A stretch of DNA of 33,164 nt. It comes from a virus (Duplodnaviria; Heunggongvirae; Uroviricota; Caudoviricetes). The notes under the pieces are model-generated. The model did no database searches. It saw only the letters and a program-made list of their open reading frames with translations, and was not told the origin of the DNA. Below, piece after piece: positions 1,308 to 6,737 of this stretch. Position 1 is the first letter of the stretch, and each line of letters opens with the position of its first letter. A program made the position numbers and the translations under genes. Location: the IMG/VR virus record IMGVR_UViG_2534681774_000032, positions 1 through 33,164 of that record; one strand, 5' to 3'.

Positions 1308-3779
1308 TTAAAAATCAGCCTGACTCGGGAGCAGTTTTTGCCAGATGGCTGAAACGTATTTCGCCTGGTAACGTGCATCGTTCAGAGCGTTATGGCGTTC
1401 ACCTTCGAATGGAATAGTCGTTCTTGCGTCGAAATCCATCACCAGTCCCAGAGCAACCATCGTTCTTACATCGCGATCATTGGTGTAACGCCACGGGCAG
1501 GGGATCCCCTGCCGTTCATATGAACGGCGTAAAATCACGTTGTCGAAAGTTGCACCGTTACCCCAGACCTGAACAAAAAATTCACCGGAGTTTTCGTCGA
1601 TAAATTCCCGCAATTGTAACAGTGCATCATCTAACGGGATTTCATCGGTCATAATGGCAGATTGCGCTTCGCGTGATTGCTTAAGCCACCATTTAATGGT
1701 GTCCCGATCAATGACTCCGCCAGCAGTTTCCAGATCAATAGTCTTACTAAATTCCGGTCCCATATCTCCGGTTTGCGGATCGAAAAATATTGCACCTATT
1801 GAGATAATCGGGGCATCAGGATTTTTTCCCATGGTTTCAAGGTCGATCATTAGATGGTCACACGTCCTGCTGGTGGATGTGATAACGTGATGACCGTTCA
1901 CCGTAATTAAGGGATCTGCCGTCTCGCCAGTTTCACTATCGCTGGCGTGATCCTGAGCGCTACCAGCATTCTCCTTGTGTGGATGTTCAGCGCCTTCCAT
2001 TTCCTCCGGATCATTTTCCTGAACTTCAACCTGATTCTCTTCATCGAATGTTTCCTGGTATGTTGCGTCACCCATCACCGCGCCACAATCATGGCAGTTG
2101 CCACCACCGCTTTGACCGCAGGCGGTGCAGACTTTTTCCGGTTCCTGTTGCGCTACTGGCTCAGGTTGTTTCGTTTCTGGCTCGTTTTGTTGCGTATTTG
2201 GGCTGTTTTGTTCCGCTTTCTGGTCGTTCTGTTCCGATTCTTGCTGGTTCTGGTTTACAGAATCGCGGGTTTCCATCCCCTTTACCCATTTCGGATCATT
2301 CGGGTCGCTAATCCCTGCAACAAATTCTCCGCGAGAGGCAGCAAGCAACTTATCGGCGTCAGGCTGGCTGATATTGGCTGCCTGCATAATTTTGTTTACT
2401 TCGTCAGCGGTAACTTTTACCGGCTCTGGTTGTGCGGTCGTGTCAGATGCACCAGTATTTTGTTGTGAACCTGAGTATGTACTGTTTTTGCGGGCGAAAT
2501 ATTCTTCTTTCGTGATTTCAGTAGCCCCGGCAGCCAGTGCCTTATCCAGACCAGAAAGTTTGTTTGCGCGACCGTATTTTTCGCCATCCTTGTCGGTGAA
2601 GAGGAAGTAGAACGGCCCCTCACGCTCTACAGATGGTTCGACTTCCACTTTGCATTCGGTTTTTTCGTTGTCCGGAATTGCCGTTTCCACTGCATCAGTT
2701 TCTGGTACTGACGACGAGAGAGTATCAGTTGCGCTCTGATTTGTTCCTTCATCTTCAAACACGCCCTTTGTAGTCAGGTATTCAGTAATGTATTTGTTCA
2801 GTGCCACAGGGTCTTTGTGAATGTCGATCGGACGTTCACGGACAAGGCCAAAAATAGTCTGGCGGTCGTAGCGAAGGGCATCAGGCTGTTTGCGCATTGA
2901 TGTCGAGATACGCTTCCAGTCTTCGCGGTCGTTGTCGATAACTTCATTTTTTGCCCAGCGATGGATGCTGCCGTCAATGTTTCCGGCATCCACATCACCA
3001 GGCCAGAGAGCGTAGGCCAGTTCGTCATCCAGTGTTTTCCATGTCTGCTTGTATTCGCGATGAATGGCAGCAATGACCAGGCTGATTTTTCCTGTTGAAT
3101 TTTCAGTGTGCTGTTGATTGACTCTGGCGCGGGCGAGATCAACAACAGACGTGTATTTTCCGGTTTCCTTGCGTTCACCTTCGCGACGTTTTTTCCAGAT
3201 GCGCATCTCTGCCTGAATTTCGGGCCATTTGGCACCAGGCTTACATTTATGCTTAACCCACCCGATGGCATGCAGCTTAAGCTCCGGATACATGGCGTTA
3301 ACTTCTGGCATTTTCATCAACGCTTCAACGATATGTCCGTCGAATGTTGCCATGTCTTCCTGCAACAATTCCTGTGCGCTAATAACCATATCAACGGTGA
3401 TGTTTTCACATGTGTCGAACTTAACCATGACAGCGTTCTGTACTTCAGGGGCCAGCTTGTCAAAAGTGACGTTCATCGGATCGGATTCAGTCTCAACCGG
3501 GACAAAGGAAGCAGACTCCTCATCCCAGCGGTTTTCCTGCATATATTCAGCATCCCAGGAATCGAGGGCAGGGCGGGGTATGCCGGGTTTATCCTCACAG
3601 ACAATAAATTTATAAGCGCAGTCCTGAGCTGCAGGGAATTGCTCCAGAAATTGCCAATGAAATTTTGCGCGTGCGCGACGCTCATCACCAGCTTCAATGG
3701 CAGTGGCCACCGCAACAGCGCTATCTTCTTTTATGGCCTGTTCATCAGGAATAGCAGCGCAAATAAAGACTTTACTCAT
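1308..3779 (-). CDS. Prophage exonuclease: RecE-like N-terminal and central region fused to a C-terminal DEDDh-type 3'-5' exonuclease domain
   Basis: 823-aa ORF; central segment [28 protein letters not shown]...[17 protein letters not shown]...[10 protein letters not shown] matches my recollection of Rac RecE; C-terminus carries DnaQ-like motifs ([22 protein letters not shown]). Confidence 0.75.
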
Positions 3780-3871
3780 TTTGTTTTACCTCATTACAGA
3801 TTTAAGGGTGAACAAATCCCTGCCATTGCTGGCATATAAGAATGAAACCGGATGTTTATTACGGAACTGTT

Positions 3872-4063
3872 TTAAAGACCTGCCGGGATTTCGTTATTAT
3901 CCTGGTGAATAACTTTATCGACCGGGTAACAGTTACCGGGAATTTTCTGTTCGGTTGCTGCAGTCACACACTCCTGCATTGTCCTGTGAACACTGACTGC
4001 AATATCAACTGGCTCTCCGGAAACAAGAAAAACTGTCAGAACAAGTGCAAATGCTGTATTCAT
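3872..4063 (-). CDS. Small secreted/membrane protein, YdfD-like (63 aa, N-terminal hydrophobic segment)
   Basis: Internal ATG of ORF 3872..4117 gives MNTAFALVLTVFLVSGEP...; start overlaps the stop of the dicB-like gene (ATGA); same position and length as ydfD downstream of dicB in Qin. Confidence 0.45.
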   Translation of the reverse strand: MNTAFALVLTVFLVSGEPVDIAVSVHRTMQECVTAATEQKIPGNCYPVDKVIHQDNNEIPAGL

Positions 4064-4248
4064 TGCCAGCATCCTTTTTGTATCGGACGTAAACGGGCCA
4101 GCATTGAAAGAATGCATATTTTATTTAATAGCTCCCGTTCGTGTTTTCTCTTGTTAATGGCATCTTCAGTAAATACAGGGTTACTGATAGTGACACCAAT
4201 TTCAAAACAACCTTCAGACGTATTAACGTTTGGTAATAACGTTTCCAT
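4060..4248 (-). CDS. dicB: DicB-like cell-division inhibitor (62 aa)
   Basis: Internal ATG (4248) of ORF 4060..4353 preceded by GAGG; product METLLPNVNTSEGCFEIGVTISNPVFTEDAINKRK... closely matches remembered DicB; located just downstream of a DicF-like sRNA. Confidence 0.6.
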   Translation of the reverse strand: METLLPNVNTSEGCFEIGVTISNPVFTEDAINKRKHERELLNKICILSMLARLRPIQKGCWQ

Positions 4249-4423
4249 TATCGCGTCCTCAACAATGAATTTTGTGATGTGGTGCCTGGTGCCTCCAGGT
4301 GACGTTAACCAGTTAACAATTAACGCCGGATACAGAGAATCCACCCATAACACTGTTTTTGGTTTTAACTGTTCCGCGTGCGCTCAGCCGCATTCACCGC
4401 ATCACAAAATTCACTTTAAAAAC

Positions 4424-4475
4424 GGCGGCAGAGCAGTCACGGAGTAAAACTGATACCGCCAAACGTCACCAGAAA
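4424..4475 (-). ncRNA. dicF: DicF-like small RNA (about 52 nt, ends in a GC-rich hairpin plus U-run)
   Basis: Minus-strand sequence TTTCTGGTGACGTTTGGCGGTATCAGTTTTACTCCGTGACTGCTCTGCCGCCGTTTTT matches remembered DicF almost base for base; lies between the ydfC-like and dicB-like genes as in Qin; ends approximate. Confidence 0.55.
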
Positions 4476-4815
4476 ATTGATAACAGAGGGCGTTGCAGCG
4501 GGGTTGTCGCTTAAGCGTATGGTCAACCTGACAACCCGGTGTCCTCAACGGGGAAGGAATAACCCCGCCATACTTACCGCCGCGCCATTTCGCGGAGTGC
4601 CACAACCGGAAGCGCACGGTCGACGAAAATTTAACGACAGGCTATCTATGAACCAGCTACCTCGCCGTGCGCTTTCGCGTTATGGTCTGACTTTTCATGG
4701 AAATATCCTTTCAGTAAACTGTCAGTGCCGGATGCTCACCCATGTCCGGCGCACGCACTCCACCTCACCCGTGGAGAACTCCTTAATTACCAACCTTAGC
4801 TTCGTTGGTTAGCTA

Positions 4816-5034
4816 TTAACGCGGGTATGTAATCATTCTGGCAATGCTTAATGCCGCTGCTTTTTCCAGCCTGGTGATATCCTGCTCCAGAGCGGACAGA
4901 TTTTCAGCCTGCTTAGCCCTGGCTTCATTGGCCCATTTCAGATCCTGCGCTGCATTAATTTTCTGGCGCATCCACTCATAAAGTTCATCATCGGTATAGT
5001 CTGGCGAGATGATGACGGGTTCTCGTTTCTGCAT
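4816..5034 (-). CDS. Small prophage early protein, YdfC-like (72 aa)
   Basis: 72-aa ORF in the leftward early operon; length and position match ydfC of the Qin dicB operon. Confidence 0.45.
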   Translation of the reverse strand: MQKREPVIISPDYTDDELYEWMRQKINAAQDLKWANEARAKQAENLSALEQDITRLEKAAALSIARMITYPR

Positions 5035-5063
5035 ACTGATTCCTCGCGGTGCTGCTTCGCTTA

Positions 5064-5192
5064 TCAGCCGTTAGATTTTGCCGAGCTGGAAAGCGCCTGT
5101 TTAAACTCACTGAAGCTGAGAGCTTCTTCGCCTTCGGCAAGGCCTTCGAAGTATTCTTCGTAAGCCTTTTCCATGATTGTGTCGAAATCCAT
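5064..5192 (-). CDS. Small acidic protein, YdfB-like (42 aa), below the ORF-track size cutoff
   Basis: ATG at 5192 preceded by AGGTGAGTG; translation MDFDTIMEKAYEEYFEGLAEGEEALSFSEFKQALSSSAKSNG; stop TGA at 5066-5064; fills the gap between the flanking small genes. Confidence 0.4.
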   Translation of the reverse strand: MDFDTIMEKAYEEYFEGLAEGEEALSFSEFKQALSSSAKSNG

Positions 5193-5193
5193 A

Positions 5194-5349
5194 TCACTCA
5201 CCTGAGTTTCTTTCCAGCCAGCGACGGGCACCATTTTCGGTTTTAAACGTTTTGCTTCTGGTATACGTCATCGCGGTAAACGTGCCGTCCTGGTTGGGAA
5301 ACACGCCGCATACCAGAGATTCGTTGTTGCCAAGATCGATAGTATTCAT
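5194..5349 (-). CDS. Small prophage early protein, YdfA-like (51 aa), first gene of the leftward operon
   Basis: Internal ATG (5349) of ORF 5194..5403 preceded by GAGG; product MNTIDLGNNESLVCGVFPNQDGTFTAMTYTRSKTFKTENGARRWLERNSGE; immediately downstream of the OL-like operator cluster. Confidence 0.45.
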   Translation of the reverse strand: MNTIDLGNNESLVCGVFPNQDGTFTAMTYTRSKTFKTENGARRWLERNSGE

Positions 5350-5428
5350 GCTGACCTCATTTCCCCTTAACGCCGGGGTAGCGGAACTGTTTGCTGAGAA
5401 CACCGTGCGGTGTCTTGGTGGAGATTAA

Positions 5429-5480
5429 TTTAGAATAACCTAACAAATGTAGCAAGTATTTTTGTTAGATTGGTCTAACA
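5429..5480. promoter_or_regulatory. Left operator cluster (OL-like): two TGTTAG-N6-CTAACA type palindromes
   Basis: Perfect TGTTAG-attggt-CTAACA at 5463-5480 and a weaker TTTAG-N6-CTAACA at 5429-5445, between the repressor 3' end and the first leftward gene; same palindrome recurs in the repressor/cro intergenic region. Confidence 0.5.
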
Positions 5481-5516
5481 AAAAGAGTGAGGGAATCTAA
5501 GTATCTGAAAGGAGTG

Positions 5517-5924
5517 TTATTTTATTGATTTGTTTTTACGTGCTTTAAGCATTTCTTCGAAGAGTTTATTGAAATTCTCTACTCTTGCGCGCATTTCAGA
5601 CAGTAAGGCTTCCTGCTCGGAGGAGGGAAGAGCATCGAATAATTCGATCAATTCTTTGTGGCTGGGAGTTAACTCGGTTTCCACATGAAGTTCTTGTGCT
5701 GGCACTGGTGCCTTGTCTTCGTCACCAAACATTAGCCATGTAGGCGAGCACTTCAGCGCATCAGCTAAAGCAAATAACCGCTTCCCGACCGGTTGGGTTT
5801 CGTCTCTTTCCCATTGTGAAATTGTGACGTGAGCTACCCCAGCGAGGCGTGCAGCTTCTCGTTGTGTTAGGCGTAATTCTTTTCGTCGTGCCAGAACTCG
5901 CTGGCCTAGGGTTCTTGTATCCAT
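5517..5924 (-). CDS. dicA: Prophage repressor, DicA-like XRE-family HTH protein (cI analogue)
   Basis: 135-aa ORF; N-terminal HTH LTQREAARLAGVAHVTISQWERDETQP; C-terminal CSPTWLMFGDEDK...EMRARVENFNKLFEEMLKAR resembles DicA; divergent from a Cro-like gene; flanked by operator palindromes. Confidence 0.85.
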   Translation of the reverse strand: MDTRTLGQRVLARRKELRLTQREAARLAGVAHVTISQWERDETQPVGKRLFALADALKCSPTWLMFGDEDKAPVPAQELHVETELTPSHKELIELFDALPSSEQEALLSEMRARVENFNKLFEEMLKARKNKSIK

Positions 5925-5926
5925 AG

Positions 5927-5991
5927 TTAGGTAATTCTAATTTTTCTTGACTTAGGTATCCCGCGCACATTACTGTTAGGAATATCTAACA
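5927..5991. promoter_or_regulatory. Right operator/promoter region (OR-like) with rightward promoter
   Basis: GTTAG-gtaatt-CTAA at 5926-5940 and perfect TGTTAG-gaatat-CTAACA at 5974-5991; candidate -35 TTGACT (5947-5952) and -10 TACTGT (5971-5976) overlap the operator; RBS AGAGGGGG precedes the cro-like start. Confidence 0.5.
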
Positions 5992-6004
5992 AGAGGGGGC
6001 TTTG

Positions 6005-6232
6005 ATGCTTAAAGTTGACGCAATTACTTTTTTTGGCAGCAAAACAAAACTTGCCAATGCCGCAGGAGTGAAACTGGCAAGTGTTGCTGCATGGGGGGAA
6101 CTGGTTCCTGAAGGTCGCGCGATGCGCCTGCAAGAGGCATCCGGCGGGGAACTTCAGTACGACCCCAAAGTTTATGACGAATATCGTAAGGCAAAGCGGG
6201 CGGGGCGGTTGAACAATGAAAATCACCCCTGA
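6005..6232 (+). CDS. dicC: Cro-like regulator, DicC-like
   Basis: 75-aa product from ATG 6005 (ORF track starts at TTG 6002); FGSKTKLANAAGVKLASVAAWGELVPEGRAMRLQEASGGELQYDPKVYDEYRK resembles DicC/YdaS; divergent from the repressor. Confidence 0.8.
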   Translation: MLKVDAITFFGSKTKLANAAGVKLASVAAWGELVPEGRAMRLQEASGGELQYDPKVYDEYRKAKRAGRLNNENHP

Positions 6233-6737
6233 ACAGGTTTGTGAGGCTCTGGATGCCTGGGTATGCCGACCAGGAATGACACAGGAGCAGGCGACGATAT
6301 TAATCACGGAAGCATTCTGGGCTCTGAAAGAACGCCCGAATATCGATGTTCAACGCGTCACGTTTAATGATGGCGAGGTTGATCAACGGGCGTTGGGCGT
6401 TAACCGGGTGAAGATATTCGAACGCTGGAAAGCTATCGACACCAGGGATAAGCGGGAAAAATTCACGGCGCTGATTCCGGCAATTATGGAGGCTATCCGG
6501 ATCAGCGATTTCAGGTTGTATTGTGAAATTACTGACGGAAAAAGCATTACGTACATGATCGCCGGGTTAAACAAAGAATATGGTGATGTGGTGGAGTCCG
6601 GGCTGCTTTTTGCGGATCCATCTGTTGTGGAACGTGAGACTGACGAGCTTATAGAAAAAGCTATTGCTTTCAAGCATGCGTATCGTCAGCAATACCAACA
6701 AAAAGCTGGATGGAATTATGAGCCTTCTTTTTGCTGA
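6216..6737 (+). CDS. Early-right regulator-like protein, possibly YdaT-like (cII position)
   Basis: 173-aa ORF overlapping the cro-like stop by 17 nt (translational coupling); family assignment from position and vague similarity only. Confidence 0.45.
   Translation: MKITPEQVCEALDAWVCRPGMTQEQATILITEAFWALKERPNIDVQRVTFNDGEVDQRALGVNRVKIFERWKAIDTRDKREKFTALIPAIMEAIRISDFRLYCEITDGKSITYMIAGLNKEYGDVVESGLLFADPSVVERETDELIEKAIAFKHAYRQQYQQKAGWNYEPSFC

Follow-up and report, generated by a model that had tools for sequence, protein, structure and literature searches.

In Escherichia coli K-12, the polycistronic transcript from the dicBp promoter of the Qin prophage is cleaved by RNase III to a species of 190 nucleotides (nt) and by RNase E to DicF, a small RNA (sRNA) of 53 nt, both terminated and read-through transcripts having been reported (PMC10448788). 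The promoter is similar to lambda PL, and DicA acts as its repressor; repressors of this type are inactivated by antirepressors and not by RecA, and Rem induced dicBp 165-fold (PMC10448788). The pairing of DicF with the ftsZ mRNA is direct, as was proven by compensatory mutations (PMC5069750), and xylR, pykA and manX are repressed by DicF as well (PMC5069750; PMC9438474). DicB binds MinC, dismantles the FtsZ ring via ZipA and blocks ManYZ-dependent phage entry (PMC6832061). Multiple dicF copies have been described in O157 (PMC5069750), and in enterohaemorrhagic E. coli (EHEC), which carries up to four of them, DicF activates pchA (PMC7873438). Here, a locus of the same kind was analysed in the IMG/VR virus record IMGVR_UViG_2534681774_000032, whose 33,164 nt are referred to as the window. 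The locus is very probably a Qin-type dicBF division-arrest operon under a DicA-family repressor, with every functional step taken over from experiments performed in K-12.

The dicBF operon and its counterpart in K-12

When the 2,351 nt at 3600-5950 were compared by megablast with 5,426 complete E. coli genomes, they were 100% identical to two records, one of which was E. coli O111:H2 strain 12A (NZ_CP077479.1; window position x corresponds to position 3380658 - x of that record). Because of this identity the conservation of the operon is, on sequence grounds, a matter of orthology and not of chance, and the element is best explained as the dicBF operon that a Qin-like lambdoid prophage carries next to yccA in E. 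coli O111:H2. The features of the operon are the following, with identities in nt and amino acids (aa) given relative to K-12:

5349..5194, minus strand: ydfA (DUF1391, 51 aa); PF07151 at 99.2 bits; 95.5% nt, 48/51 aa
5192..5064, minus strand: ydfB (42 aa), annotated as ydfB in NZ_CP077479.1; 99.2% nt, 42/42 aa
5034..4816, minus strand: ydfC (72 aa), annotated as ydfC; 97.7% nt, 70/72 aa
4815..4476, minus strand: untranslated region 3' of ydfC, precursor of DicF; 340 nt exactly as in K-12, 96.8% identical
4423..4475, minus strand: dicF, 53-nt sRNA with an intrinsic terminator hairpin and U-run, placed by RF00039, alignment to K-12 and folding
4216..4425, minus strand: dicF-dicB intergenic leader, a sub-threshold relative of STnc100
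4248..4060, minus strand: dicB (62 aa); 93.7% nt, 56/62 aa
4063..3872, minus strand: ydfD (DUF1482, 63 aa); PF07358 at 88 bits; 97.4% nt, 59/63 aa

The Rfam search of the whole window placed DicF (RF00039) at 4474..4423 on the minus strand, over the full model (positions 1-52), with 72.5 bits against a gathering threshold of 48 and an E-value of 2.5e-14. Global alignment with Qin of MG1655 (NC_000913.3) showed that 52 of the 53 nt at 4475..4423 were identical to K-12 dicF. The sole change, C to G at 4423, affects the final base before the U-run, lies outside the terminator stem and is a common variant in viral contigs. The sequence had been read earlier from its letters alone, without database searches, and this sequence-only reading had proposed a DicF-like segment at 4424-4475 on the minus strand ending in a GC hairpin and a U-run. 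The segment was right within one base, and the fold showed an interrupted GC stem, GGCGGUA-UCAGU...ACUG-CUCUGCCGCC, followed by G and UUUUU (-16.6 kcal/mol), in which GGCGG...CCGCC forms the outer and CAGU/ACUG the inner part. The folding z-score of this hairpin against shuffles was only -1.6 and, with its stem interrupted, it was not listed by a generic terminator scan; the terminator and the operon promoter described below were both placed by homology and folding, the rules of the generic scans being too strict for either.

The dicF gene has ydfC and dicB as its neighbours, and the operon is under a repressor of DicA type, which passes NF007257. The order ydfA, ydfB, ydfC, spacer, dicF, dicB, ydfD is that of Qin, just as the sequence-only reading had stated, and the genes have 94-99% nt identity to K-12. 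All five small open reading frames (ORFs) are intact, with 90-100% protein identity to K-12, and the region between dicF and dicB (4422..4249) is 98.3% identical. The protein described as DicB-like passed the cut-offs of PF05358 (127.4 bits against 27) and NF049927 (132.7 against 100) over residues 1-62 of 62, with changes from K-12 at residues 2, 36, 47, 55-57 and 61. The Pfam cut-offs were also passed by YdfA and YdfD, and the NCBIfam cut-offs by DicA and DicC. The ydfD gene, whose product is annotated in K-12 as a lysis protein, overlaps the stop of dicB by 4 nt. The alignment to K-12 dicF and dicB that had been named as a check was thus run with a clear outcome for both genes; the finding is real, it had been interpreted correctly, and its biology is already known.

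A 111-nt segment containing dicF was found in 4347 of the 5426 complete E. coli genomes, at a median of 2 and a maximum of 9 places per genome. DicF appears to be unannotated in many of them, with 'none' listed for the top 12 matches of the segment. In RefSeq NZ_CP077479.1, ydfB, ydfC, dicB and the DUF1482 protein are annotated here, adjoined by the exonuclease and a helix-turn-helix repressor, and there is no dicF feature at 3376183-3376235, which corresponds to window 4423-4475. In the 254-kb record of Aeromonas phage AP1 (MT713136.1), 247 bp at 249906-250152 were 98-100% identical to E. coli dicF and the dicF-dicB region; this stretch, near the end of the record, is probably an assembly chimera or a contamination.

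It could be argued that the region is a decaying remnant with non-functional products, retained through a recent or hitch-hiking prophage, since the prophage seems defective (ISEc22 interrupts the terminase large subunit) and DicB carries six substitutions relative to K-12. This is very improbable: none of the ORFs has a frameshift or a stop, every pairing position of DicF is identical to K-12, the promoter and operators are preserved, the DicB variant scores above the curated family cut-offs, and thousands of genomes have kept the segment, frequently more than once per genome, with an identity of 95-100%.

The spacer between ydfC and dicF, put by the sequence-only reading at about 340 bp and regarded as a possible processed precursor, measures exactly 340 nt, and its processing is published for K-12 (PMC10448788). 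Together with DicF it folded more stably than all of 100 shuffles (z = -3.2; z = -2.5 for K-12). The minimum-energy folds of the window and of K-12 alike contained one long helix:

4601..4684, minus strand: long interrupted helix of ~22 bp, formed by 4684..4660 and 4625..4601; candidate substrate of RNase III

The 5' end of the 190-nt species would fall at ~4612, in the 3' arm of this helix. This mapping assumes that the 190-nt species and DicF have a common 3' end and has length as its only basis; the published numbering (cleavage 'between 813 and 814' in a transcript of 1,146 nt) could not be brought into agreement with the promoter position placed here.

Repressor, promoter and the proposed course of division arrest

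The sequence-only reading had called the locus a leftward early operon. The term is a fair one: the promoter lies just downstream of the DicA-family repressor gene and points toward the exonuclease and integrase genes, and dicBp of K-12 is PL-like (PMC10448788). The regulatory features of the window are listed below:

5517..5924, minus strand: DicA-family repressor gene (135 aa); NF007257 at 224 bits against a cut-off of 101
5427..5455, minus strand: putative dicBp-equivalent (PL-like) promoter; -35 TTGCTA at 5455..5450, 17-nt spacer, -10 TAAATT at 5432..5427
5462..5481, no strand: perfect operator-like palindrome TTGTTAGATTGGTCTAACAA, an exact match to TTGTTAG-N6-CTAACAA, upstream of the operon promoter
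5973..5992, no strand: operator-like palindrome CTGTTAG-N6-CTAACAA, one mismatch to TTGTTAG-N6-CTAACAA, between repressor and cro genes
6005..6232, plus strand: DicC-like Cro gene, divergent from the repressor gene; NF007282 at 166.7 bits against 130; 62/75 aa identical to K-12 DicC
10275..10526, plus strand: rem antirepressor gene; 79/83 aa identical to K-12 Rem (95%)

The position of the putative promoter matches that of TTGACC-17-TAATCT in K-12 when the sequences are read side by side; with 8/12 consensus positions it was too weak for the rules of the generic promoter scan and was not listed there. The palindrome at 5462..5481 occupies the site of the K-12 DicA-type operator near dicBp, and the K-12 equivalent of that at 5973..5992 is TTGTTAGTCATAACTAACAA. 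A further operator-like match at 5427-5446, with three mismatches, has a half-site inside the promoter spacer. In total, the pattern search found four matches to TTGTTAG-N6-CTAACAA in the window against 0.98 expected by chance. The half-sites are the same in the window and in K-12, and from these sequences we infer that the repressor binds the operator-like palindromes.

The repressor itself has HTH_3 as its only strong domain in Pfam, and no S24 peptidase domain was found in it; this absence fits an inactivation based on antirepressors and not on RecA (PMC10448788). Only 75 of its 135 aa (~55%) are identical to K-12 DicA. The similarity to K-12 DNA resumes at ~5597, a position within the 3' portion of that gene, and since the repressor is diverged and the cargo is 94-99% identical, the sequences point to an exchange of the immunity module by recombination in which the cargo operon was kept. 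The rem gene could derepress the operon, its action on the diverged repressor being an assumption.

Compared with K-12 Qin, the window has the same order ydfABC-dicF-dicB-ydfD, the same 340-nt spacer, operator half-sites and promoter position, and dicC-like and rem genes. It differs in its diverged DicA-family allele and in the intergenic region down to ydfA, which is 71% identical. Furthermore, the exonuclease is intact here (823 aa), whereas ydfE of K-12 is a pseudogene truncated by IS2, and the integration site lies beside yccA instead of at the Qin locus near rspB.

Taken together with the work on K-12, the following course may be proposed. In the lysogen, the short DicA-family repressor, without a RecA-cleavage domain, would bind the TTGTTAG-N6-CTAACAA operators that overlap the PL-like promoter (~5455..5427) and keep the operon silent. 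Upon derepression by Rem, by spontaneous switching or by stress, ydfA-ydfB-ydfC and the 340-nt structured untranslated region would be transcribed, most transcripts halting at the DicF terminator. Cleavage of the long helix by RNase III at ~4612 would yield the ~190-nt precursor, and cleavage by RNase E at 4475 the 53-nt DicF, which with Hfq would pair at the ribosome-binding region of ftsZ and lower the synthesis of FtsZ. The transcripts that read through the terminator would give DicB, and the DicB-MinC complex would be brought to the septal ring via ZipA, so that the FtsZ ring is dismantled; YdfD, the lysis protein, would be encoded after DicB on the same transcripts. The actions of DicF on ftsZ and of DicB through MinC, on which the sequence-only reading had already relied, are established in K-12 (PMC5069750, PMC6832061).

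The predicted duplex of DicF with ftsZ extends from -29 to +25 of ftsZ, covers the Shine-Dalgarno sequence and the AUG, and is the same with the DicF of the window and that of K-12. The comparison made here comprised sequence orthology, family membership, gene order, the conservation of operators and promoter, and RNA structure, and several of its results weigh against the proposed course. All the evidence from this strain is sequence, with the functions carried over from K-12. In RNAduplex, 69 of 1000 shuffled versions of DicF formed a duplex with the ftsZ leader that was no weaker than that of the real one; because the duplex energies did not separate the two, the targeting of ftsZ relies on the pairing nucleotides, which are identical to those of K-12 DicF. 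Of the 62 residues of DicB, 6 differ from its K-12 counterpart, and four of these changes fall within the last eight positions; its binding to MinC is assumed. With a repressor only ~55% identical to DicA, operator specificity and sensitivity to Rem are likewise assumptions, and the promoter, 8/12 to consensus, was placed by homology alone. Finally, the prophage is probably defective, and therefore 'early operon' describes its ancestry and not a working lytic programme. Even with these reservations, a Qin-type division-arrest operon is the reading that we hold with high confidence.

The dicBF operon can also be set beside other systems. EHEC O157:H7 and other pathogenic E. coli carry dicF and parts of the operon in several lambdoid prophages per genome; the activation of pchA and the enterocyte-effacement locus (LEE) by DicF in EHEC depends, however, on host genes. 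Kil of lambda and KilR of Rac occupy the same early-left slot between repressor and recombination genes and block the FtsZ ring on derepression (PMC3961180), but they are unrelated proteins with other mechanisms, DicB acting via MinC and ZipA and lambda Kil needing ZipA (PMC3961180). The value of the present finding is mainly one of annotation: it concerns a complete and apparently inducible cassette for division arrest and superinfection exclusion in an O111:H2 strain whose host was human, and DicF feeds into virulence regulation in related pathogens (PMC7873438).

A conserved 119-nt RNA core upstream of DicF

The 340-nt spacer is not just a passive precursor, since a structured RNA with conservation of its own occupies its last 119 nt:

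4488..4606, minus strand: conserved structured RNA core (119 nt), forming a four-way junction and possibly a pseudoknot, directly 5' of DicF

When the spacer was used as a query in a sensitive blastn search of phage genomes, its positions 210-332 were found to be conserved on their own. The core was detected in this way in phage cdtI, Stx2c phages, Salmonella phage F1055, Actinobacillus phage pPE4, P1 and P7. A set was then assembled from 119 further viral loci, recovered by pattern, and representatives from Escherichia, Shigella, Citrobacter, Erwinia, Izhakiella, Trabulsiella and Serratia. The alignment of the homologues showed an invariant core with a variable, covarying hairpin, and a covariance model built for the purpose (R1) scored 141.9 bits at 4606..4488.

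Among 33 distinct homologues, 96.8% of the cells of the alignment were paired in a four-helix junction with a candidate pseudoknot (GUAUGG with CCAUAC), and 15 pairs, representing 43 cells, were changed on both sides. None of 500 shuffles reached the observed level of covariation, and slid controls gave at most 5 such pairs. The 33 sequences had been aligned by fitting to R1, which favours the structure; a separate MAFFT alignment pointed in the same direction, and RNAalifold on its own predicted four of the helices. No Rfam 15 family matched the core at E <= 10, and a prior description in the older literature is possible. With R1, neither the rightward nor the late operons of the window yielded a second copy of the core. 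A mascRNA hit overlapping the core, with an E-value of 9.1, was set aside as noise.

These data also bear on the idea that the spacer codes for protein. Two ORFs exist there mechanically, one of 68 aa starting with GTG (4617..4411, minus strand) and one of 111 aa starting with TTG (4477..4812, plus strand), and hypothetical proteins are annotated at the homologous place in some phage records, on either strand. However, the core ranges from 116 to 124 nt among the homologues in steps that are not multiples of three, so that no reading frame is conserved over it on either strand. The substitutions keep base pairs, as seen in the 15 pairs changed on both sides; the 68-aa ORF has no Pfam match, and the K-12 annotation contains no gene at this place. 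A coding function of the spacer is scarcely credible on these grounds.

The interval from the inferred RNase III site (~4612) to the RNase E site (4475) is exactly where the core is located. In the homologues, it is always followed by a terminator hairpin and U-run, and the hairpin loop and the 5' tail vary with the phage group (DicF, cdtI, pPE4, short and P1 types). Directly 5' of the core, most copies carry a boxA-like motif, GUGCUCUC or UGCUCUUUCC; for that of the window (GUGCGCUUCC, 4611-4621, minus strand), pairing inside the RNase III helix is predicted. In cdtI, as in P1, core and terminator make up the untranslated leader of an operon under repressor control; in cdtI a strong PL-like promoter lies ahead of them and the first ORF behind. 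A small gene annotated as Kil or as division-related fills the position behind the conserved RNA elements in Actinobacillus phage pPE4 and in phage phiSTEC1589-Stx1c.

The layout of core and terminator suggests a shared module for processing or stability, or a control of terminator read-through. We tentatively propose that the core is an uncatalogued and widespread phage RNA family, which would serve as the common 5' module for interchangeable terminator-hairpin sRNAs, DicF included, and direct their processing or stability or control the read-through; this is possible, with the chances rather against it. If it were true, DicF would count as one among the cassettes of a modular RNA system present in P1, cdtI, Stx2c phages, prophages of several Enterobacterales and a Pasteurellaceae phage, and a control of read-through would allow dicB, the exonuclease and the integrase to be expressed without an N protein. 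A covariation-supported RNA that stands immediately upstream of one of the oldest known bacterial sRNAs, and returns ahead of different sRNA-like hairpins in many phages, offers a testable lead on how lambdoid phages lacking N make and pass such terminators.

The comparison with P1 is instructive. Its 'dicF-like region' (AF234172.1, 68791-68892) resembles the locus in having the core (83.5 bits with R1) with a terminator hairpin next to it, downstream of repressor-controlled promoters. It differs in that the hairpin, GCCCAUCUUCGGGUGGGC with a U-run, lacks the DicF seed and falls below the Rfam threshold for DicF, and in that the element heads an operon of tRNA, tci and ban genes and not one of division inhibitors.

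A related but unlikely explanation, which can coexist with a division-arrest operon, is that the DicF hairpin and the core are mainly a transcription-control or processing module, in the form of a leader RNA with an intrinsic terminator, gating dicB, the exonuclease and the integrase, and that sRNA activity is an add-on of particular lineages. The core is kept across phages of several genera with its terminator always behind it, and the hairpin loop, which in DicF contains the ftsZ-pairing part, is wholly different between phage groups. The leader position in cdtI and the boxA-like motif before most copies agree with such a role, as does the location of the P1 core just past the C1-controlled ban promoters and before the tRNA, tci and ban genes; moreover, no N-type antiterminator gene was recognisable in the operon with Pfam and NCBIfam. 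Nevertheless, the boxA-like motif of the window deviates from the lambda and rrn consensus, besides being predicted as paired, and P1 has none; an alternative antiterminator pairing shared by the variants could not be found, and the K-12 experiments showing terminated and read-through transcripts did not address the core. R1 detected nothing in the put region of HK022 or in the putL-like RNA of HK639, which leaves the core without homology to the only known lambdoid RNA antiterminators.

The core was considered as a put-type antiterminator and rejected as such: in the immunity region of HK022, R1 had no match at E <= 10, and in the putL-like region of HK639, with filters off, it reached 5.9 bits at best (E 0.9). 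Rfam returned nothing relevant from the immunity region of HK022 either. The put RNAs of HK022 and HK639 have their layout in common with the core, as structured RNAs near the start of the PL transcript in lambdoid phages lacking N, with terminators downstream that have to be passed (PMC9378689; HK639 annotation), but they have two stems in ~70 nt, as opposed to a four-way junction in 119 nt, and no similarity in sequence or structure was detectable.

In the relatives from Erwinia, Izhakiella, Trabulsiella, Serratia and Salmonella phage F1055, the terminator stem-loop after the core holds a Shine-Dalgarno-like AGGAG and an AUG or GUG. The start of a downstream ORF may be sequestered in the terminator.

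Downstream genes and the source prophage

Downstream of the operon and in the same direction, an intact exonuclease gene was identified:

1308..3779, minus strand: exonuclease gene (823 aa); Pfam Rv2179c-like 3'-5' exoribonuclease domain at 220.8 bits

The window starts with the integrase gene, the prophage being inserted beside yccA. The terminase large-subunit gene (20482-25067) is interrupted by the IS66-family element ISEc22 (tnpA, tnpB and transposase, ~21030-23365), and because of this split the prophage is probably defective and unable to package DNA.

The dicF-dicB leader was considered as a member of STnc100 and discarded: RF02076 reached 35.3 bits, below the gathering threshold of 47, with an E-value of 7.4e-6 over 901 nt, which makes it a relative only. 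A full STnc100 copy (139 bits) is present in the late region, at 14854-15044 on the plus strand, right after three tRNA genes. Both have stem-loop modules in common, including a compensatory stem (CCUGG/CCAGG versus CCGGG/CCCGG), and these STnc100-like modules are also carried by the leaders before kil-type genes in other phages.

The three tRNA genes (14529-14775, plus strand; Ile, Arg and Arg in RefSeq) lie in the late-regulatory region, downstream of a DNA methyltransferase gene. Their layout is like that upstream of stx in Stx phages; here it comes without toxin genes, and a DUF6645 gene is next. Additionally, a gene for a SIR2-family protein, which may be an anti-phage defence gene, occupies a typical slot for accessory genes (8572-9531, plus strand) between the replication genes and hokD. 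The hokD/sok type I toxin-antitoxin locus (9734-10058, plus strand; sok at 116 bits in Rfam, hokD coding sequence at 9903-10058) stands directly 5' of rem, as it does in Qin. A YdaT-family 'toxin' gene (6216-6737, plus strand) follows immediately after the cro-like gene, and the same cro/ydaT pair is present in Actinobacillus phage pPE4, beside a repressor annotated as DicA.

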